DNA from: a virus
Taxonomy: Duplodnaviria > Caudoviricetes
Reading direction: 5' to 3' (one strand)
Length of the DNA stretch: 31,470 nt
Virus record (IMG/VR): IMGVR_UViG_3300017565_000037
Location: 1-31,470 of that record
Position 1 is the stretch's first letter. The number at the start of each line of letters is the position of its first letter. The position numbers and the translations under genes are program-made. The notes below the pieces were generated by a model. That model made no database searches. It was not told the origin of the DNA and saw nothing but the letters and a program-made list of their open reading frames with translations. Of this stretch, positions 4,838-31,470 are shown piece by piece.

Positions 4838-5016
4838 TGCGCACTGCACCACACACATCCACGAACCCAGGTAAGCGGGTTCGACTCCGGCTGCGTGATG
4901 GTCGCGCGATAGAGGGCCGTTTCGTGGAGCGCACAGGGAAATTCGTTGTGCTGGACGCAGGACGCTTCCGTGGCAGTGAGATCGAGCGGTTCCACGTATT
5001 GAAGGGCGCGGCATGA
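4837..5016 (+). CDS. Small basic beta-rich protein, Sm/LSm-like by motif
   Basis: TGATG coupling to terL and ATGA coupling to portal. Contains GKRVRLRLRDGRAIEGRF and FRGSEI. Confidence 0.65.
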   Translation: MRTAPHTSTNPGKRVRLRLRDGRAIEGRFVERTGKFVVLDAGRFRGSEIERFHVLKGAA

Positions 5017-19884: not shown

Positions 19885-20109
19885 CTACACGAACCCGCGC
19901 ATGTCTTCGTCGGAGATCGCCCCGATGCTGTGCAGGATCGCTTGCATAGCCTCCACCACGACGAACTCATCCTCGGGCGGGACTCCATCGCCCAGCGCCT
20001 CCTGGACCTCGTTTGCAGCGGCCCAAAATTCCTCGGAATCGCCATGCCTGGCCCACACCTGCCGCAGTGACATGCTGGCCTGTTGGATGCGTTGGGTAAT
20101 GTCGGTCAT
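19885..20109 (-). CDS. Acidic helical hypothetical protein (74 aa)
   Basis: ATGA overlap with the SRAP stop. Translation MTDITQRIQQ...DMRGFV*. Confidence 0.65.
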   Translation of the reverse strand: MTDITQRIQQASMSLRQVWARHGDSEEFWAAANEVQEALGDGVPPEDEFVVVEAMQAILHSIGAISDEDMRGFV

Positions 20110-20777
20110 GTTGCTACGGGCTCCAAAAGTTCTGGGTCGTCGTTCTTGGGCGTATTCACCCGCCGGCTGACCCGGTGGGCCTTCATCGGCGGCGGCTCGC
20201 TTGCCAGCAGGAACTTCATGGCGTCGTCGGGCGAGGCCGTCAGCCAATCTTCCATCAGGTCGGGGGCGATGGTCACGGGCATCCGGTCATGGATGTCCGC
20301 AGAGACGCCACTGGAGCCTCCGGTGATGATCGTGAACGTGGCAGGCGCACCCTCACCGAGTAGGCGGTGTGGCGGCTCCCATAGGCCAGCCGCCCATAGC
20401 ATCCCCTCGGGGTAGATGTACCAGGGGTCCTTCTTTCCGTCGCCCGGGTTAACCGTCCACTCGTAGTAGCCGGCCATTGGGATGATGCATCGACGGGATT
20501 TGAAGGCCGAGCGGAATGCCGGCTTCGTGGCCACGGTCTCGATCCTGGCATTGATGGTCGAGTAGCCCAGCTTCACGTCCTTGGCCCAGCCGGGCAGCAG
20601 ACCCCAACGCAGGCGCTCTAGGGTCACCCCCGGGCCCGGGTCGTAGATGACCCCGGATAGCTGTGTGGGCGCCAGGTTGTACCGGGGCGGCAGCAGAATC
20701 ATCAGGTCGCGCAGCTCCCGCCAGGTCTGGGGCAGGTTGGGGTTCTCCTTGGCGAGCTGGGCGTACCGTCCGCACAT
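20106..20777 (-). CDS. SRAP (SOS response-associated peptidase; YedK/HMCES family) abasic-site protein
   Basis: N-terminal MCGRY (catalytic Cys2), RYNLAPTQ, RWGL, INARIET, GYYEW, IHDRMP and VSRRVN motifs. Confidence 0.95.
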   Translation of the reverse strand: MCGRYAQLAKENPNLPQTWRELRDLMILLPPRYNLAPTQLSGVIYDPGPGVTLERLRWGLLPGWAKDVKLGYSTINARIETVATKPAFRSAFKSRRCIIPMAGYYEWTVNPGDGKKDPWYIYPEGMLWAAGLWEPPHRLLGEGAPATFTIITGGSSGVSADIHDRMPVTIAPDLMEDWLTASPDDAMKFLLASEPPPMKAHRVSRRVNTPKNDDPELLEPVAT

Positions 20778-20838
20778 GGCCGCAGGGTACACCCGGGGCG
20801 TATACGGCCGTGAGACTGGCCGGGCGTAGGCTGGCCCG

Positions 20839-21260: not shown

Positions 21261-21273
21261 TATCAGGCACTTA
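21261..21273 (+). promoter_or_regulatory. IHF-binding-like site in attP
   Basis: TATCAG-GCAC-TTA fits WATCAR-N4-TTR. A weaker inverted copy lies near 21180-21192. Confidence 0.6.
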
Positions 21274-22357
21274 CGTCCGATTGGTTGGCGATCATCAGCA
21301 TTCCTAGCACGCACGTAACACGCACGCGGCTGGCGTATCCATCGATCACTTCCACCGCCTGCCCGAGATAGTCGGGCCGGTACTTGGCGTACACCTCGGT
21401 TCGGCCGCCGAAGGCTCGGTGACCCAGGAAGCCTTGAATCTCTGCCTCGGGCACTCCTGCCGCCCGCAGCTCCGTCGCCATCGTGTGCCGGATCGTCTTG
21501 GGCACCACGTCCTCGCCTAACCCAGCCCGTCGCCGGAGCGCCCGCCATGCCGTCTTGAAGCTGGCGATGGGCTTGCGACGCCAAGCCACCAGAGGCCCGT
21601 CCTGCGCATCCAGCAGCGCCTGTCGCAGGAACCCGGCTACCGGCACCACGGGGCGGTATTTCCGGGTCTGCTTCCGCCCCGCAGGGTTCTGCACCAGGAG
21701 CCACCGCCCGAAGTCAACCTGTTCGCGCGTCAGGTCTAGCGCCGCCTCCGGTCGCGTCAGCGTTCCGTACAGCAGGGCCAGCATCATCCGCTCATGGGGG
21801 AGAGTGGTGGACAGCCACAAGGCGGCTGACTCGGCCACCGTCAGCACTCGGTCCCTCGGTGGCGCGTCCTCGCCCGGCAGGATGTAGGGCACGCTCGCGA
21901 TCTCGCCTTCCTTGTACGCGTGGTTCAAGGCGGCCTTCCCCACGGTGAGGATCCGCTTGATGTACCCAGGCGCCTTGCCGTCCTCGGCCAGCCAAGCCAC
22001 GAACTCGCGCTGCCGGCCCGCCGTGACCTCGGAGACCGTGGCTTCGCCCCAGAACTCGGTCCAGTACCGGAGGGCGATCTTGGCGAACTCCGCCGATGCC
22101 AGGCTGCTGGCGTGCCGCTCCCAGTACCGGACCAGGACCAGGGCCAGGGCCGCGTCCTGCGGCTGCTGCTGGGCGATCCGCCCGTGCTTGGCGAACCACT
22201 CCCAGAGTTTCAGCTTGCCTTCTTGAAAATCTGCTGTGCCAAGTGAAGCGCGTCGTGTTTGTCGGGCGGCGGCGTCGAACCACGTTCGGCACCACTTGTC
22301 CGACCCCTCGCGCTTGCTGAGCCAGTATTCTCCGATTTGGCCGGGGCGTTCCTGCAT
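21263..22357 (-). CDS. int: Tyrosine integrase
   Basis: Catalytic R (LTRPEA), K-x-x-R-H (PKTIRH), LGH and Y (EVYAKY). Adjacent to attP. Confidence 0.93.
   Translation of the reverse strand: MQERPGQIGEYWLSKREGSDKWCRTWFDAAARQTRRASLGTADFQEGKLKLWEWFAKHGRIAQQQPQDAALALVLVRYWERHASSLASAEFAKIALRYWTEFWGEATVSEVTAGRQREFVAWLAEDGKAPGYIKRILTVGKAALNHAYKEGEIASVPYILPGEDAPPRDRVLTVAESAALWLSTTLPHERMMLALLYGTLTRPEAALDLTREQVDFGRWLLVQNPAGRKQTRKYRPVVPVAGFLRQALLDAQDGPLVAWRRKPIASFKTAWRALRRRAGLGEDVVPKTIRHTMATELRAAGVPEAEIQGFLGHRAFGGRTEVYAKYRPDYLGQAVEVIDGYASRVRVTCVLGMLMIANQSDVSA
21305..21326. repeat. Integrase arm-type sites, right pair
   Basis: Tandem 11-mers TAGCACGCACG / TAACACGCACG. Confidence 0.7.
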
Positions 22358-25476: not shown

Positions 25477-26075
25477 CACCGAACCTCCTTTGCGTCGACA
25501 TCGCACTCACACGATGGGCAATGCGGCGGTTCGTGGGTTTCGTGGTAGGGGCGGGGTTTCTCCCCAGCGTATGACTTTGGCAAGGCGTCTTCCCTGTGCT
25601 GCACACCCTGCCCGCGCAGGTGGGGTTGCGCAGCAGCGATGATGGCCCGCACGACCTTGTGCCTCGATAGACGGGCGTCGCTTGCAATCTCTGCTGCACG
25701 GACACCAGCCTCCACCGCCGCATCCAGCCCCTGCGGCTCGGGTATCGGCTCCTTCCGTCCGTCGTGCCGACCCAGCATGTACGCCACAGTCAGGTCGTCA
25801 GGCTCACGTCGCGCCGTATGCACACCAGCGGCGTCGGCGTTGTCGGCGGCACGGAGAAGGCGGGCTTGTTCACGGTAAGATTTATCGCTGAACCCCTTCC
25901 CGAACCGCTCCGCTATGTCGTCCAGCATGTCCGCCACGAGCGCACGGTCATACGCGGGCTGTGCCTGCTGTAGCGCGGCAAGCAGTCGATTGAAATCGAC
26001 AGCCTTCACCATGACGCCAAGACCAAAGACGCTGTAGGTGGGGGTTTTCCCGTCCGCTGCAAATGAGTCGCACAT
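25476..26075 (-). CDS. Modular hypothetical protein
   Basis: GGGAGG SD and GTGATG coupling. C-terminal 'HEPPHCPSCEC'. Confidence 0.6.
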   Translation of the reverse strand: MCDSFAADGKTPTYSVFGLGVMVKAVDFNRLLAALQQAQPAYDRALVADMLDDIAERFGKGFSDKSYREQARLLRAADNADAAGVHTARREPDDLTVAYMLGRHDGRKEPIPEPQGLDAAVEAGVRAAEIASDARLSRHKVVRAIIAAAQPHLRGQGVQHREDALPKSYAGEKPRPYHETHEPPHCPSCECDVDAKEVR

Positions 26076-26950
26076 CACGCGCCCTCCCTGTGCTGGTCTG
26101 ATAGACGCTGCCAGTGCTCCACGACTCCGGCTACCGCGCCTGAGTTCTCCTTCAATTTGGCCTCTGCTTGCTCGGCCAGCCACGGCTGAATGTCCCGCAG
26201 GAACTCGTCCAACCGTCCTTTCAGGTCGTACTGCGGATACAGGGCGTTCTCACCGTCGATCAGGAGGAACGGTCCTTTGATGTTTCGCGTCCGACGAAGC
26301 ACATCCATGTCCGCGCAGGAGGCCTGGAATCCAGTGACGCCGAGCCGCTTGGCCACGTAATTGAACGCGGCGGTTGCCGCCAAACTCATGGCATAGGCGC
26401 TCGTTCCGTAATCGTGGTCGCGATTCACCACGCTGGCTATGAACGATGCCAGCTCGTCACCAGACTCCGGCGTGGGAACCTGGTACTCGCGCATGCCGGC
26501 CTCGTCCGTAGGGATAGCATGGTCCACCGAGGGCTGCGGCTGGGTGAGTTTGGTTTCCTGGTCACCCTCAAATATCGGCAGGATGCCGTAATGTACTTGC
26601 CAGTTGAGCGCAACGGACTTGTCCGCCGTCTCCATCAGATAGTCGTCCGTCCGCCATCCGATCAAGCGGGGCGACTCCGCCTTCGGCTGCTCAGCAATGG
26701 CGGCGCCCCCGACTACTGGTCCAGTCGATTCACCGCCGCGCGAGGCAACGGAGCCGGGGGTGCCATGGAGGGCGAGTGCGGAAAGGGTCTCTTCGATCCT
26801 GTCGCGCCAGTACGTATCCACATCGCTCTGGTGCACGTCTGTGTACTGGCCTTCGACGGTATCGTGATGGCCGTGTGCATAGGCGGTTGAGTAGAGCCTA
26901 CAAAGCAACTCCGGCAGCGCGGCGGGGGCGGGGTGGGGTTGGGTGGTCAT
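26075..26950 (-). CDS. Modular hypothetical protein (291 aa)
   Basis: GGAG SD and ATGA coupling. Three segments joined by P/Q/A-rich linkers. Confidence 0.65.
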   Translation of the reverse strand: MTTQPHPAPAALPELLCRLYSTAYAHGHHDTVEGQYTDVHQSDVDTYWRDRIEETLSALALHGTPGSVASRGGESTGPVVGGAAIAEQPKAESPRLIGWRTDDYLMETADKSVALNWQVHYGILPIFEGDQETKLTQPQPSVDHAIPTDEAGMREYQVPTPESGDELASFIASVVNRDHDYGTSAYAMSLAATAAFNYVAKRLGVTGFQASCADMDVLRRTRNIKGPFLLIDGENALYPQYDLKGRLDEFLRDIQPWLAEQAEAKLKENSGAVAGVVEHWQRLSDQHREGA

Positions 26951-27498
26951 GCGGCTTTCTCCTCATCCGCCCGCTGGACTTGCTTGAAGAAGTCCGAGAG
27001 TTCCTCAGGCTCTATCTCGAAGTCCCACCAGCGAGAGCGGGTTAGCGTGGATAGCGAAATGCTCTGCATGAACCTGCACAACTCGCCGGGTACAGCGAGT
27101 ACGTGGAAACGCCCATCATCGTGGAAGGCGAAGCAGACGAAGAAGTCTGCGACAAGCTCTTGCTTCTTGAGGGAAAAGCAGAATCTGTTATCCCTCCACT
27201 TACTGCTCTTGATGTCAACCGCGTATGGGCCAACCTTAAAATCTACCTTTGCTTGAAACTCAAAGTCGTTCTGATTGACAGCCTCGGGAACATACTGACT
27301 GAATATTCTCTCGGCTCTTGCCGCCAGCCGATCCTTATCGCTCCCATAGCGAGATTTGTCCCCAGTAACCGGCTCTCCAACTGCTCGCAGATGTACGTAC
27401 ACGGTCTGCCAGGGTATGCCAATCTCCTCGGCCACCAATTTGAGATTCTTGATGCGCCTGTAGGATTCGACGCATTTGGCTTGGATGTCGCTCACCAT
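26947..27498 (-). CDS. HTH + PD-(D/E)XK nuclease-like protein
   Basis: N-terminal HTH (NLKLVAEEIGIPWQTVYVHL), then AE...VDF...VDIKSS. Visibly AT-richer than neighbours. Confidence 0.65.
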   Translation of the reverse strand: MVSDIQAKCVESYRRIKNLKLVAEEIGIPWQTVYVHLRAVGEPVTGDKSRYGSDKDRLAARAERIFSQYVPEAVNQNDFEFQAKVDFKVGPYAVDIKSSKWRDNRFCFSLKKQELVADFFVCFAFHDDGRFHVLAVPGELCRFMQSISLSTLTRSRWWDFEIEPEELSDFFKQVQRADEEKAA

Positions 27499-27821
27499 AT
27501 CCCCCTATTCGTGACGAATGGGATGTCTTGGTCCTGGTCAAAGCTGTCCTGCTGCGCCCCAGGCACGCGGTCCTCCGGCTTGTTACGCTGCGGCCTAGAC
27601 GACGAGGCGGCGTTGCCCTGCTTGTTGTCGTCCTGAGGAAACAGGGATGCCTTGCCGTCCCACCAGTTGCCAACCGGCATCGCGGTGAACTCGATGCTGA
27701 TCCCGCCGTCATCCCACTTCGTGGCGCGGCCGATGTTCACCCACTGCTTCTTTTCCTGGCCGTCGCGAGTGGTGTACGGCTTGCCTGCTGAAACGTTGTA
27801 GCGTTCGATTACCTGGGCCAT
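27492..27821 (-). CDS. Single-stranded DNA-binding protein (phage type)
   Basis: Short OB-like N-terminus (YTTRDGQEKKQWVNIG), flexible linker and acidic DQDQDIPF tail. Follows the recombination genes. Confidence 0.8.
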   Translation of the reverse strand: MAQVIERYNVSAGKPYTTRDGQEKKQWVNIGRATKWDDGGISIEFTAMPVGNWWDGKASLFPQDDNKQGNAASSSRPQRNKPEDRVPGAQQDSFDQDQDIPFVTNRGIW

Positions 27822-27823
27822 GG

Positions 27824-28420
27824 TTATGCTGCCTCTAAGTTTGGGGTGTGGTTGGGGAGGTGCAGGGACGCGAACTCGTGGAAGTCCCTCGCGAGGTCCA
27901 TACAGTCGTCGTGCAGGCCCGGGTAGCGGTACTGCTCCAGGATGTGCGGCGACTTGACCATGTAGGTCTTGTCCTCGTCACGGCTGGGTACCAGTTCAAA
28001 GACGTTCCAACGGAAAACGTCAGCGCCGAAGATGTCCAGGTAGAAGCGCCACTGACACCCTTCTAGGTAACCTTCCGGGCGAAAGCTTTGCGTGGACTTG
28101 TGATCGTCTATCCGCTTCCCAAGCAGGCCATCGACTTGCCCGGTCACCACGAGAGGGCCATAGCTTCCGTAGGCCCGCAGCTCCCTCACGTCCGGCAGAG
28201 CGATTTCGCCATCGCCGAACAGGAACGTATAGCCGTTCGCCTCCAAGCGGTCATAGCTTCCAGGGATGGCAAGCTCTAGCGCCCGATGGAATGCAGTACC
28301 TGCAAGCATTCGCTCTGTAGGCTGGAAGTCGACGAGCCGGGCCACAAGGTCAGCAGCGCCCAGTTCCTCGTCCAGACGCCACCGCCTGAAGGTCTCAATG
28401 CTGGATACCCGAGCCAGCAT
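27824..28420 (-). CDS. PD-(D/E)XK exonuclease (RecB/Cas4-like fold)
   Basis: GTAFH, E, GQVDG, DHKST and QWRFY motifs. TGATG-coupled to the ATPase. Confidence 0.8.
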   Translation of the reverse strand: MLARVSSIETFRRWRLDEELGAADLVARLVDFQPTERMLAGTAFHRALELAIPGSYDRLEANGYTFLFGDGEIALPDVRELRAYGSYGPLVVTGQVDGLLGKRIDDHKSTQSFRPEGYLEGCQWRFYLDIFGADVFRWNVFELVPSRDEDKTYMVKSPHILEQYRYPGLHDDCMDLARDFHEFASLHLPNHTPNLEAA

Positions 28421-29316
28421 CAGGCGGCCGCCTTCGTGGGCGCGTATTCCCGAGCGTCCTTGTCGAAGGAAAGCCCGAGCTCTAGAGCCCTGGCGTGCAG
28501 GAGAGCTTTGCCGGAGTTCCCGGCATCCTTGGCCTGAGGAAGAAGGCTGTTGACCGCCTCGGCATCTTCAGCGTCAGCGAGAGCTTCGCGCAACTTCCCG
28601 AGCCGATCCTGGGCCTCTGCCTGCTCGGCCGTCAGCTCGTTCAACTTGTCCTTAATCGACTGTATGACAGCACCCAGGAATCCCGGGTCGCGATCAGGAT
28701 GCGGAATATCCAGAACATCCAGTTGGCCAGGGTTCTTGCCGAATGACCCTTCCCTCGGGCTGAAGTCAAGCTGCCGTGCGCCACCCTTGACGAATACTCG
28801 CCCCATCGCGTCAGCGGCCTTGTATATCTCGCCCTTGCTGCCGCCCTGAACGTCCAGGCGCTCAATCATTTCATCGCCATTGCGCTGCTCGTCCATGTGA
28901 GCGATCAGAACCACGTCCTTGCCAAAACCCTTCAGCAGCTTCAGGAAGGCCGAGAACTCAGTCTTAAGTGTTCCGTAGCCTTGAAGCGTGAGTGCTCCAC
29001 CACGGCCCGCCTTGGGGTTTCTGCGCATGATGTCGGAAGACAGGCAGTCCAGGGCTCGGCCAGCGGTGTCCAGGATGATGGTGTCGAAGTCCGCGACATC
29101 AGATTCACCAATGCCGGCCACATCGCTCCACTGCCGAACCTGCACAGTGTCCTTGCGACCAGTTGCTCGATGCGCGCCTTGGTCGAAGTCCAGCAGGAGC
29201 GGCCGTTCTGCGGTGAACGCAAGCGAAGTTTTGCCAGCGCCAGGCTGGCCGTAGATGCAGATGCTAAGGCGCTCAACAACGATAGGGTCAGAAGCCCGGG
29301 TAATCCTCAGTGCCAT
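28420..29316 (-). CDS. Sak4-like AAA/RecA-fold ATPase (recombinase)
   Basis: Walker A IYGQPGAGKTS, LLDFDQG, Walker B IILDT and VLIAH. Clustered with exonuclease and SSB. Confidence 0.85.
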   Translation of the reverse strand: MALRITRASDPIVVERLSICIYGQPGAGKTSLAFTAERPLLLDFDQGAHRATGRKDTVQVRQWSDVAGIGESDVADFDTIILDTAGRALDCLSSDIMRRNPKAGRGGALTLQGYGTLKTEFSAFLKLLKGFGKDVVLIAHMDEQRNGDEMIERLDVQGGSKGEIYKAADAMGRVFVKGGARQLDFSPREGSFGKNPGQLDVLDIPHPDRDPGFLGAVIQSIKDKLNELTAEQAEAQDRLGKLREALADAEDAEAVNSLLPQAKDAGNSGKALLHARALELGLSFDKDAREYAPTKAAA

Positions 29317-29413
29317 GGTTGTAACCTCCGGTCAGTTCGGCTTGGTCGTCGGTGGGAAGGGCTGGTTCGTTCGGGTCGGTAACATCTGGCGGCTCATCGC
29401 TAAGCCATTTCAT
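29288..29413 (-). CDS. Small acidic ORF (41 aa)
   Basis: GGAGG SD. Translation MKWLSDEPPDVTDPNEPALPTDDQAELTGGYNHGTEDYPGF overlaps the ATPase start. Confidence 0.4.
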   Translation of the reverse strand: MKWLSDEPPDVTDPNEPALPTDDQAELTGGYNHGTEDYPGF

Positions 29414-29432
29414 GTCCGCCTCCGCTGTAGGA

Positions 29433-29484
29433 GCCCGGAGACCCACCGTTGCAGGGGGCACAGGGGGAGGGCGGGCCTCCGGGC
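29433..29484 (-). other. 15-bp RNA hairpin with 22-nt C-rich loop
   Basis: GCCCGGAGGCCCGCC / GGTGGGTCTCCGGGC, with two G-U pairs valid only on the minus strand. Confidence 0.6.
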
Positions 29485-29491
29485 GTAGGGG

Positions 29492-29619
29492 TGAGAGTGG
29501 GCAGGATTCGACACCTGCTGTGCGGGCCTTCGGCGGCTGACCTAGGAAGCCTTCTCGCATCCTCGACGGATGCCCCGCTGGTGGCTGGCCGTGCGTGTCC
29601 TTCCACGCCGCCACTCTCA
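29492..29619 (-). ncRNA. tRNA-like cloverleaf RNA (C4/CI-like candidate)
   Basis: 9-bp closing stem TGAGAGTGG/CCACTCTCA, D-like arm GCGTG-GAAGGA-CACGC, T-like arm GCAGG-TGTCGAAT-CCTGC and internal hairpin GCATCC/GGATGC. Confidence 0.65.
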
Positions 29620-29692
29620 TATTTGGCAAATGCTTCGTACAGCGGACGCCAGTTTCGTTCGCGCTCGCTGCTGTTCAACGGTCGTTCGCAAG

Positions 29693-29845
29693 TCAGAACC
29701 ACAGCAGCACTCCCTTAACGGCGCTACGGAACAGGTCGGGCGCCATCACGATCACGCCGGCCAGGGTGAGCAGTCCGCCCATCGCTGCCATCGGCAGGAG
29801 ACCGTCCGGGCCGGTCCAGGATTCGCGGGACATACGCCGCCTCAT
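29693..29845 (-). CDS. Small membrane protein, 50 aa (not in ORF track)
   Basis: ATGA coupling. Translation MRRRMSRESWTGPDGLLPMAAMGGLLTLAGVIVMAPDLFRSAVKGVLLWF*. Confidence 0.55.
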   Translation of the reverse strand: MRRRMSRESWTGPDGLLPMAAMGGLLTLAGVIVMAPDLFRSAVKGVLLWF

Positions 29846-30129
29846 GACCCCATCCTCGACGTGTAATCCCCCTCGGCGAGCTGGGCGGGGGTGAGGGTTG
29901 GCTTGCTCAGCTCGGCCAGGAGGGCGTCGGTGTACTCAACTGCGCGCAGGGCAATCATTGAAACCACGTCTACATGGATGTGGCCTTTGTACTTCTCTGC
30001 CACATGCGGGTTTGACAGAAACCCTTGCATCGCCAGCGCCGCGATCAGCTCGCGCTTGGTCAGCCCAAACTCATGGCTTCTCGGGTCGTGCATCGGCGGA
30101 AACGCGGGGGCGTTCGGATTAGCGTCCAT
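29842..30129 (-). CDS. Conserved-type small phage early protein
   Basis: GGAGG SD. 'PAFP...GLTKRELIAALAMQG...AVEYTDALLAEL' is a motif widespread in phage hypothetical proteins. Confidence 0.75.
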   Translation of the reverse strand: MDANPNAPAFPPMHDPRSHEFGLTKRELIAALAMQGFLSNPHVAEKYKGHIHVDVVSMIALRAVEYTDALLAELSKPTLTPAQLAEGDYTSRMGS

Positions 30130-30442
30130 CCTGGGCCTCCTTGGCTGGGGTGATGCGAGCGAGTGCAGCGCGAGCCTTGGCAATGGCGTCACCACGCCCA
30201 AGCCATCCCGGGGCATCCTGATGGTGCGGACTCACATAGGCCATGCAATCGAGTGATTCCCGTAGAGCATCCCTCAGCAGCTCCGCGTCGGCCCGCAGCC
30301 CCTCTACCTCAACGCGGAGGGCGTCTACCTCGTCAGCAAGCCCGTACAACCTGTCCAACTGACCGGCCCTGCTGGACAAGTCTCCCTCGCGCCTGATTCG
30401 ATCAGACAACGCCACCGGCTTGACCTCGGTCATGGCGCTCAC
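30119..30442 (-). CDS. Coiled-coil hypothetical protein
   Basis: GTGA coupling; contains 'LRDALRE...AKARAALA'. Confidence 0.65.
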   Translation of the reverse strand: MSAMTEVKPVALSDRIRREGDLSSRAGQLDRLYGLADEVDALRVEVEGLRADAELLRDALRESLDCMAYVSPHHQDAPGWLGRGDAIAKARAALARITPAKEAQDGR

Positions 30443-30777
30443 GCTGCACGCTCCAGATCGTCCGGCCGCGCAGTAGCCCGCTCATATGCGGCCTCGGCGT
30501 CGAGCATTGCTTCAGCGCGGATTGCAGTTGCGACCCGCCCCTGTAGCGTCATGAACAGCGCCAGCCCGGCCGCAGCCATTGCCTCATTCGTCTGTGCGGC
30601 GTCGAACGCTTGGTAGAAGTCAGTCGCAGCCTCTTCCAGCGTGTCGCCAGAGCCAATCGTGAAGAACCAGGAGATTTCGTCGCGGACGCGGCTACTGTCC
30701 TGGATTCGCTGGTCGTACAGCGAGTGGGCGTAGTCGTCTACCCATTCCTCGCGGTCCATGTGGGGAACGGCGCTCAT
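30439..30777 (-). CDS. Acidic hypothetical protein (112 aa)
   Basis: Start/stop overlaps at both ends. Confidence 0.65.
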   Translation of the reverse strand: MSAVPHMDREEWVDDYAHSLYDQRIQDSSRVRDEISWFFTIGSGDTLEEAATDFYQAFDAAQTNEAMAAAGLALFMTLQGRVATAIRAEAMLDAEAAYERATARPDDLERAA

Positions 30778-30893
30778 GCCCGCACCGATGCCTGCTGGGC
30801 CTGCGCCAGCTCGTCCTCGGTCAGCTTTGCGTACACCTGCTCCAGCCAGTCGGCTTGGTAGAGGTAGCCCAGGTAGAGGGGGTTGGCGCTCAT
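30774..30893 (-). CDS. Small hypothetical protein, 39 aa (not in ORF track)
   Basis: GGAGGA SD and ATGA overlaps at both ends. Translation [39 protein letters not shown]. Confidence 0.6.
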   Translation of the reverse strand: MSANPLYLGYLYQADWLEQVYAKLTEDELAQAQQASVRA

Positions 30894-31470
30894 GCGTCCT
30901 CCCCGGGCGTCCACAGCCGCACGTGTTCGTCTATCAGGGCGACAGCAGCCCGGTACTCCTGCGCGTGTTCGTTATCGCCGTGTCGGTCCGCCAGCTTCGC
31001 CAGGAACTCGTCCCGCGAGCCGAAGAAGCAACCAGCCCGAAGCCGAAGCCCCTTGTCCGTGATGTAAGCGACGAACTGCCGCGACTCGCTGCCGATTGGC
31101 CCGAGTTGGAAGTAGGGGCGCTTGCCGACCAGGATCAGGTCGGAGCCGTCATCGTCGAGAATCTTGGCACCGGCCAGGTAGGCATCGGCCAGGTAGGCAT
31201 CGGCCAGGTTGGCACCGGCCAGCTTGGCACCGGCCAGGTTGGCACGGGCCAGGTTGGCACGGGCCAGGTCGGCATCGGCCAGGTTGGCACCGGCCAGGTT
31301 GGCACGGGCCAGGTAGGCATCGGCCAGGTAGGCACCGGCCAGGTAGGCACCGGCCAGGTAGGCATCGGCCAGGTTGGCACCGGCCAGGTAGGCACCGGCC
31401 AGGTAGGCATCGGCCAGGTTGGCACCGGCCAGGTAGGCATCGGCCAGGTTGGCATCGGCCAGGTTGGCAC
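30890..31470 (-). CDS. Pentapeptide-repeat protein (5'-truncated by window)
   Basis: Frame starting at 31468 reads A(N/Y/D/K)LA(D/G/R) repeats, then a globular domain (...GPIGSESR...[13 protein letters not shown]...HAQEY...) ending at TGA 30890. Confidence 0.9.
31166..31470. repeat. 15-bp tandem repeat array (about 20 units)
   Basis: Units of GGCA(C/T)(C/G)GGCCAGGT(A/T) encoding the pentapeptide repeats. Confidence 0.9.

Follow-up and report, generated by a model that had tools for sequence, protein, structure and literature searches.

What kind of RNA, if any, lies in the gap between two short open reading frames (ORFs) in the early leftward arm of a temperate P22-like phage? The phage is represented by a virus record of 31,470 bases (82% complete), and the window analysed here is that entire record. 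Its plus strand carries Q-like antiterminator, lysis, terminase, portal and capsid genes, and its leftward arm leads from a pentapeptide-repeat gene through the Sak4 gene and methyltransferase genes to the integrase (assignments from PHROGs and Pfam). Within this arm, positions 29492-29619 of the minus strand can be drawn as a tRNA-like cloverleaf, flanked on that strand by a 50-codon ORF (end 29693) and a 40-codon ORF (start 29410), with Sak4 176 nt downstream. The pentapeptide-repeat gene (30890-31470, minus strand) is interrupted by the end of the record, and a gene for an SOS response associated peptidase (SRAP) lies past the integrase (20106-20792, minus strand; Pfam E 3e-55). A scan for promoters and terminators returned zero promoters in 26000-31470 and zero terminators at the element.

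Here we report that the cloverleaf is real, conserved, widespread and uncatalogued, and present the features of its family and of a sister family, together with an assessment of what the RNA may do.

Structure of the element

All parts of the preliminary description, i.e., a 9-bp acceptor-like stem, a D-like arm, a T-like arm with an 8-nt loop and a multi-hairpin centre, are present on the minus strand (Table 1), and the 3' end was correctly described as being without an encoded CCA. The closing stem of this copy comprises 9 bp (29619-29611 with 29500-29492), G18 and G19 of the D loop GAAGGA correspond to positions 29600 and 29599, and in the T loop U54 is followed by one additional base.

Table 1. 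Coordinates of the cloverleaf, its parts and neighbouring features in the window
Feature	Position	Strand	Remarks
Acceptor-like stem, 5' strand	29611..29619	-	+1 = 29617 (A), -1 = 29618 (G)
Linker C8-G9	29609..29610	-	2 nt
D-like arm	29593..29608	-	5-bp stem (10-25 to 14-21), loop G15 A16 A17 G18 G19 A20
Variable insert (74 nt)	29519..29592	-	Hairpins 29573-29557 and 29551-29539; terminal near-invariant A48 at 29519
T-like arm	29501..29518	-	5-bp stem; 8-nt loop UGUCGAAU = U54-G-U55-C56-G57-A58-A59-U60
Acceptor-like stem, 3' strand	29492..29500	-	C73 opposite G-1; then A-C-C-C, without CCA
Long GC-rich hairpin	29411..29491	-	Directly 3' of the element, before the ribosome-binding site of the 40-codon ORF; z -1.80
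40-codon ORF	29288-29410	-	Next ORF past the element
Sak4-like ssDNA annealing protein gene	28420..29316	-	PHROG 124, E 1.5e-46; early-left recombination module
Integrase	21263..22357	-	End of the same leftward arm as the element; temperate-phage context

The predicted pair probability is 0.96-1.0 in the inner 8 pairs of the acceptor, 0.95 in the D stem and 0.98-0.99 in the T stem, whether the element is folded alone or with 150-nt flanks. The folding energy (z -2.05; 6 of 200 shuffles as good) is by itself modest evidence, the opposite strand folding at z -2.70, and the case for the RNA rests on its homologues. The insert of this copy folds no better than its shuffles (z 0.13). The complementarity between GACAC in the D-like arm and GTGTC in the T-like arm, from which a long-range or alternative pairing had been proposed, does exist in this copy, but it is not conserved (an equivalent occurs in only 16 of the 207 family members) and forcing the pairing costs 3.2 kcal/mol.

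A coding explanation for the overlapping 100-codon ORF (29400-29702) was rejected. The ORF has no PHROGs or Pfam match, stop codons occur in all three sense frames in 62 of 140 homologues of the element, and insert lengths do not keep to multiples of three (56 of 207 family members); the codon-type conservation that would have spoken against an RNA was not seen.

Distribution and conservation of family A

The element belongs to a family, here designated family A, the 16-base D-arm motif of which is estimated to occur in about 540 viral stretches. Of the exact matches to the D arm, 120 viral ones were fetched, and in 100 of them both a T arm and an acceptor stem that closes the element follow. 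The corresponding figure for genome contigs is 56 of 122, and the remainder are largely chance matches in coding DNA. The complete copies are in contigs labelled Proteobacteria, Acidobacteria, Planctomycetes, Verrucomicrobia, Chloroflexi and Patescibacteria (bins that may contain stray phage contigs). Two isolated phages, Acidovorax phage AP1 and Caulobacter phage DMCA, each carry a complete copy, as found with a 30-nt BLAST query; BLAST with the 321-nt window region yielded zero phage matches and, on plasmids, three 28-nt chance matches.

Rfam gave no match to the scaffold in the window and 80 related loci, and the proposed comparison of the window with C4, c4-2, tRNA and tmRNA models and with ARAGORN was likewise without a match. 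Neither tRNA finders nor covariance models can cope with the variable insert, which is why standard tools miss family A. No account of the family was found in the full texts and readable supplements searched (i.e., outside subscription journals). The accessible parts of PMC8022706, PMC13192938, PMC5331693 and PMC4919922 contain nothing on it, and the letters of the D-arm motif are absent from the searchable supplement files of Fremin et al. 2023; the supplements of Fremin 2023 and Weinberg 2017 may contain a partial model.

In order to avoid circularity, a set of 207 members was picked by the D- and T-arm motifs alone, ignoring the acceptor. All seven acceptor pairs are formed in 175 of these members, compared with a mean of 5.6 (maximum 13) in 500 partner shuffles. 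Pairs 1-7 are each formed in 196-205 members, pair 8 in 159 and pair 9 in 121; the stem varies in length from 6 to 23 bp, many stems being longer than 7 bp, and its letters are freely variable. Covariation among homologues, which had been suggested as a check, is present: in an alignment of 15 sequences both sides vary at 12 of 19 pairs, a count reached by none of 500 shuffles, the members having been chosen as complete elements, which makes the count lean towards structure. The 207 members include 26 types of D stem and loop (all paired by selection), and a scan anchored on the T arm alone recovered D arms with many compensatory stems and a GA(A/U)GGA loop in most. The acceptor stem, the D arm and the T arm are shown by these comparisons to be under selection across hundreds of phages and prophages.

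In tRNA numbering, family A has GG at 18/19, a fifth D-stem pair (14-21) and C at position 8. The 8-9 linker is CG in 189 and CA in 18 of the 207 members (the selection pattern permitted these two only), and A48 precedes the T stem in 139 of 140 non-redundant members. The T loop has 8 nt in most; the commonest loop, UAUCAAGC, occurs in 67 of 140 and that of the window in 11 of 140. The most frequent bases at the ends are G at +1 (100 of 207), U at -1 (86) and A at 73 (94), while CCA is encoded in 9 of 207 and RCC at 73-75 in 20 of 207. Two loci (L093 and L109) may represent a third D-arm type, with loops CGGGGAAG and CGGGAA and a 3-nt linker, combined with a family-A T arm. Elsewhere in the window, a T-arm-like hairpin was noted in the terminase/portal gap (4838-4900, plus strand; loop UUCGACU, one stem mismatch), without an ARAGORN or Rfam call.

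Elbow contacts and the sister family B

A close relative of the window phage (L083; Sak4 87% identical) holds in the same slot an element with the layout and T stem of family A but with the D loop AGGCUGAU and the T loop AGAUCAGCA. This element belongs to family B, which occurs in about 2000 viral stretches, has matches in 176 phage records and is without an Rfam model; one of its members is found in 848 of 5426 E. coli genomes. In other relatives the slot holds neither A nor B (L007), or a permuted phage tmRNA directly upstream of Sak4 (L084, 2568-2860, plus strand). The two families differ in elbow chemistry, yet they use the same slot and share inserts; one contig (L135/L439) has the two in tandem, and phage AP1 carries both.

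The D and T loops of family B are complementary over 5-6 bases. Family-B D loops with an altered central C gave 61 matches, of which 25 are complete and 23 non-duplicate, and in 21 of these 23 the T loop is altered to match (2 are unaltered; the independent events are few). For family A, pairing of G19 with C56 was examined through variants of G19: the nine pattern matches comprise six non-elements, two degenerate T loops and one clean case (L740), in which A19 is paired with U56, a compensatory change that makes a thin case for the G19-C56 pair. Contact of the D loop with the T loop is shown for family B by compensation, and one clean case points to it in family A; the support for the elbow contact is stronger because the loops of family B co-vary.

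One member of family B has been studied experimentally. The RNA sRNA-17 of an mEp460-like prophage in E. coli K1 RS218, whose expression was demonstrated by Northern blot (Sun et al. 2020, PMC7719688), is a family-B member, and its primers match L376. According to the parts of that report consulted, its 5' end by RACE lies 1 nt before the 9-bp acceptor helix and 3 nt before the 7-bp RNase P register (-3), and its 3' end is a terminator about 55 nt beyond the stem, giving 193 nt overall; a tRNA-like fold or an RNA family is not described in those parts. Thus the sister RNA is expressed and starts at the edge of the stem, but its trimming does not exactly match that of a tRNA. sRNA-17 shares with family A an acceptor-like stem, a D-like arm, a variable insert, a T arm of the GCCGG/CCGGC type and the prophage early-left location; it differs in having a Watson-Crick D/T kissing helix instead of GG/UC and in ending at a terminator.

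The variable insert

In place of the anticodon arm, family A carries inserts of 41-190 nt (median 84; 140 non-redundant members), and a set of 216 family-A inserts falls into 203 BLAST clusters. Neither insert clustering nor a metagenome scan revealed a homologue of the window's insert; the scan gave 68 matches, i.e., one complete element identical to that of the window and others that are unrelated. An A and a B scaffold carry the same insert in at least two clusters, both of them clear: L303/L218 with L039, and L252 with L473/L701. In one cargo family of four sequences compensatory pairs keep the stems.

Compared with dinucleotide shuffles, the inserts fold only marginally better (mean z -0.44), and 9% fall below -2. 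Pooled over both families (306 non-redundant inserts), hairpins of the GNRA type (43 vs 12.7 expected), hairpins of the T-loop type (16 vs 3.5) and a motif resembling loop E (18 vs 6.3) are enriched, Shine-Dalgarno words are depleted (28 vs 50.5), and kink-turns and palindromic loops show no enrichment. Ribozyme patterns in 201 inserts were not above shuffles; one family-B insert (L370, minus strand, near 1050-1200) has by eye a hammerhead-ribozyme-like core. The insert is shown by these counts to be hypervariable, rich in predicted tertiary-structure loops and common to two scaffold types.

Nearly whole tRNAs with shortened or damaged anticodon loops occur as cargo in two family-A elements (L576, 219-288, plus strand; L550, 531-601, minus strand). 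At the other extreme, a family-B scaffold (L706, minus strand) is near-empty, with a 6-nt insert; apparent cases of very short inserts in family A proved to be artefacts. Flanking direct repeats had a mean longest length of 4.45 nt (median 4), compared with 4.18 (maximum 4.34) in shuffles, and gave no consistent target-site duplication.

Genomic neighbours

The 172 crude ORFs called next to family members are co-oriented with the element in 115 cases. When 150 of them were compared with PHROGs, 44 had a match, scattered over repressors, HNH nucleases, recombination, lysis and head genes, and no partner gene was found among these 150. A link to Sak4 was rejected, A or B being present in just 6 of 80 Sak4 loci.

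Of 90 long loci, 13 have a tRNA or tmRNA gene within 1.2 kb of the element. These genes, 29 in total, all share the element's strand, and five of them are within 25 nt of it; in the control a gene of this kind was found upstream of Sak4 in 1 of 80 regions. In one locus (L125, 603-1054, plus strand) ARAGORN calls a permuted tmRNA gene whose two pieces are separated by a spacer, and a family-A element occupies that spacer. This neighbourhood is the apparent behaviour of a stable-RNA gene co-transcribed with tRNAs. Tandem copies of the element occur in 10 loci. A permuted tmRNA was also observed 22 nt upstream of a family-A element (L193), and an abiF RNA (L142, 1379-1414, minus strand; 41.1 bits, cut-off 37) about 12 nt downstream of another.

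Comparison with known RNAs

Family A shares with canonical tRNA (RF00005) the 7-bp acceptor and 5-bp T stem and G18 G19 together with U55 C56; the anticodon arm, the 7-nt T loop, U8 (C instead) and an ARAGORN or Rfam call are absent. Of tmRNA it has neither the tag reading frame nor the alanine acceptor identity, and the window has no Rfam or ARAGORN tmRNA call. The preliminary suggestion of a new tRNA-like RNA is supported.

The element would work most like the engineered tRNA scaffold (Ponchon et al., PMC3753655, consulted in part) or the tRNA-like domain of tmRNA, both of which retain the acceptor stem and the D and T arms, with a foreign RNA domain replacing the anticodon arm. It differs from them in being natural, phage-borne and without CCA, and in having a 5-bp D stem, an 8-nt T loop and unrelated inserts. 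Engineered tRNAs with foreign RNA in place of the anticodon arm are, in the same partly consulted source, processed and stable in E. coli (PMC3753655).

Another noncoding tRNA mimic with D and T arms that occurs in phages is the Y RNA YrlA (RF02553), which in one case is cut by RNase P (Chen et al. 2014, PMC4201824, consulted in part). In the portion of that work available to us, YrlA has an acceptor-like stem-loop separating the T arm from the D arm, and lies beside Ro60, whereas the order of family A is canonical. YrlA was not found on the elements, the single match (25.7 bits, cut-off 69) spanning real tRNAs in L196, and no Ro60/TROVE gene was found among the ORFs of the window, an 82% complete record (40 compared with PHROGs, 30 with Pfam), or among 150 flanking ORFs.

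The T4 species 1 (rnaC) and species 2 (rnaD) RNAs are likewise stable RNAs (119-139 nt) of a phage tRNA cluster, and rnaC has a T-like arm at its end like the element. Neither has a GAAGGA D arm, and by motif neither is homologous to family A; the T loop of rnaC is a canonical 7-nt one, and long rods are part of its structure.

The C4 RNA of phages P1 and P7, to which the element had been compared, is also a small structured RNA of an early phage transcript. In the parts of the sources consulted, C4 is processed by RNase P (PMC5320573), is about 77 nt long and consists of three stems with short a'/b' antisense loops (PMC5320573, PMC2864571 supplement), a layout that differs from the cloverleaf. 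The D/T elbow motif is absent from the rows of the C4 Rfam seed that were seen. Neither C4 (RF01695) nor c4-2 matched the window at the gathering score or at E <= 10, and neither matched the 80 related loci.

Interpretation

We give even chances to the reading that the element is a natural tRNA scaffold, likely excised from the early-left transcript by the host tRNA-maturation enzymes as a stable RNA and putatively displaying a structured cargo that probably binds host proteins. This reading was adopted because family A keeps the stack, the elbow and the end biases, and because engineered scaffolds are processed and stable. RNase P takes hold of the elbow and from there gauges the stack of T stem and acceptor (PMC4810234), U-1 is favoured in many bacteria and a 3' RCCA helps the enzyme (PMC11143913; both sources in part). 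Family A has the 12-bp coaxial stack (7+5 bp, conserved) with its GG/UC elbow and the G+1/U-1 bias; the 3' RCCA is not kept. Together with the co-orientation with tRNAs, these features make the RNase P site envisaged in the preliminary description plausible.

The proposed course of events is as follows. RNase P would read the 12-bp acceptor/T stack and the G19-C56 face, and 3' trimming would free the RNA. In this copy the G-1:C73 pair may move the cut to 29618, by analogy with tRNA-His. With no anticodon arm, an 8-nt T loop and no CCA, the RNA would be kept out of translation. The cargo would then act on the host's RNA-binding or defence proteins, as a decoy or an aptamer, and conflict between host and phage would have diversified it; this is the weakest step. 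Its action would probably be through protein binding, not base-pairing.

The completeness of the acceptor stems, the drop in pairing after pair 7 and the biases at +1, -1 and 73 count for the scaffold reading, as do the compensation in the elbow, the clustering with tRNA genes, the cargo clusters, the inserts shared by A and B, the enriched loops, the lack of a partner gene and the expression of sRNA-17 with a 5' end next to its acceptor helix. The rarity of RCC and CCA, the stems longer than 7 bp, the single clean case among the G19 variants and the weak folding of the inserts (none above shuffles for that of the window) count against it, and so does the near-empty scaffold of L706, which suggests that cargo may be dispensable. 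The offset 5' end and the 55-nt 3' extension of sRNA-17 count against tRNA-like trimming.

The same properties of sRNA-17 (a 5' end at the edge of the stem and a 3' end extended downstream), the weak folding of the inserts, the 6-nt insert of L706 and the predominant co-orientation with flanking ORFs would also fit a processing or stability cassette acting in cis, in which the tRNA shape cuts or protects the early transcript (through stability of its segments or as a nuclease or Rho road-block) and the insert is folding filler. We consider this improbable on balance: there is no fixed downstream gene, A and B are absent from most related phages as seen at the Sak4 loci, elements sit in tRNA clusters and in a tmRNA spacer that are processed anyway, and the conserved cargo families and the tertiary-loop enrichment are at odds with mere filler.

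Less probable again is that the elbow itself is the active part, the RNA being a plentiful mimic of tRNA that cannot be charged and that titrates defence enzymes or sensors which bind tRNA, while the insert varies to evade recognition. The near-invariant non-canonical positions (C8, G15, A20, A48 and the 8-nt T loop), the tandem copies and the clustering with phage tRNAs would suit such a mimic, but the elbow chemistries of A and B differ despite the same slot and shared inserts, and neither anticodon nucleases nor toxins of the 3' end would find an anticodon or CCA to bind. The more specific idea of a decoy for anticodon nucleases finds no conserved anticodon arm. As to decoys within the inserts, anticodon-like hairpins number 24 vs 10.5, but several are of the T-loop type and this candidate was rejected.

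That the element is an antisense immunity regulator of the C4/CI type, with variable loops that base-pair to sites on the transcript of the phage itself, is very unlikely. An early-operon position and a hypervariability that fits specificity switching agree with it, the own flanks have slightly more 8-mer complements than foreign ones (4.8 vs 3.8, p 0.034), and upstream, near 30218 on the same strand, there is a 10-nt complement. The 30218 match, however, falls on a paired stem, and the identical-strand control has the same 8-mer excess (p 0.021), which points to composition as the cause. Across 81 loci the longest complement in own vs GC-matched foreign flanks is 8.8 vs 8.6 nt (p 0.21), so that no excess of insert complements was found, nor did loop-complementary a/b sites stand out, split 7+7-nt targets being hard to see in this comparison. 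A search of the whole genome, recommended in the preliminary description, gave 22 complementary sites of at least 10 nt vs 10.4 +/- 4 in mononucleotide shuffles, which were counted differently, and the difference is read as probable word bias. Finally, no Rfam C4 match was found in the window or the 80 related loci, and entire inserts are replaced rather than short loops.

A put-like RNA antiterminator modifying RNA polymerase in cis would suit family B, which often lies just behind the leftward promoter (AP1), and no N-like gene was seen in the window, which stops before the immunity region, but this copy is at least 1.8 kb into the arm and the distances at which family A lies vary widely, with lysis, head and tRNA genes also among its neighbours, so that we regard the proposal as having hardly any claim.

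Significance

Gaps without ORFs in phage early operons are usually ignored, and this one holds a widespread RNA family. Within the tRNA-mimic kind the modular cargo is the surprising feature. Families A and B are a natural counterpart of the tRNA scaffold used in the laboratory, the elbow being solved in two different ways, and the published sRNA-17 gains a structural family. A constant chassis with more than 200 unrelated structured inserts is a library of candidate phage RNA effectors, and with it one can directly test whether RNA decoys are as widely used by phages as small proteins are.

A bolder generalisation, which we put forward tentatively and consider possible though doubtful, is that temperate phages of many bacterial phyla maintain a general-purpose RNA display system, in which hundreds of unrelated folded domains are slotted by recombination into an interchangeable tRNA-shaped chassis with at least two elbow types and are released as stable anti-host decoys. 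If true, this system would be the RNA counterpart of the small anti-defence proteins encoded in early operons, with a cargo including captured tRNAs and a hammerhead-like fold.
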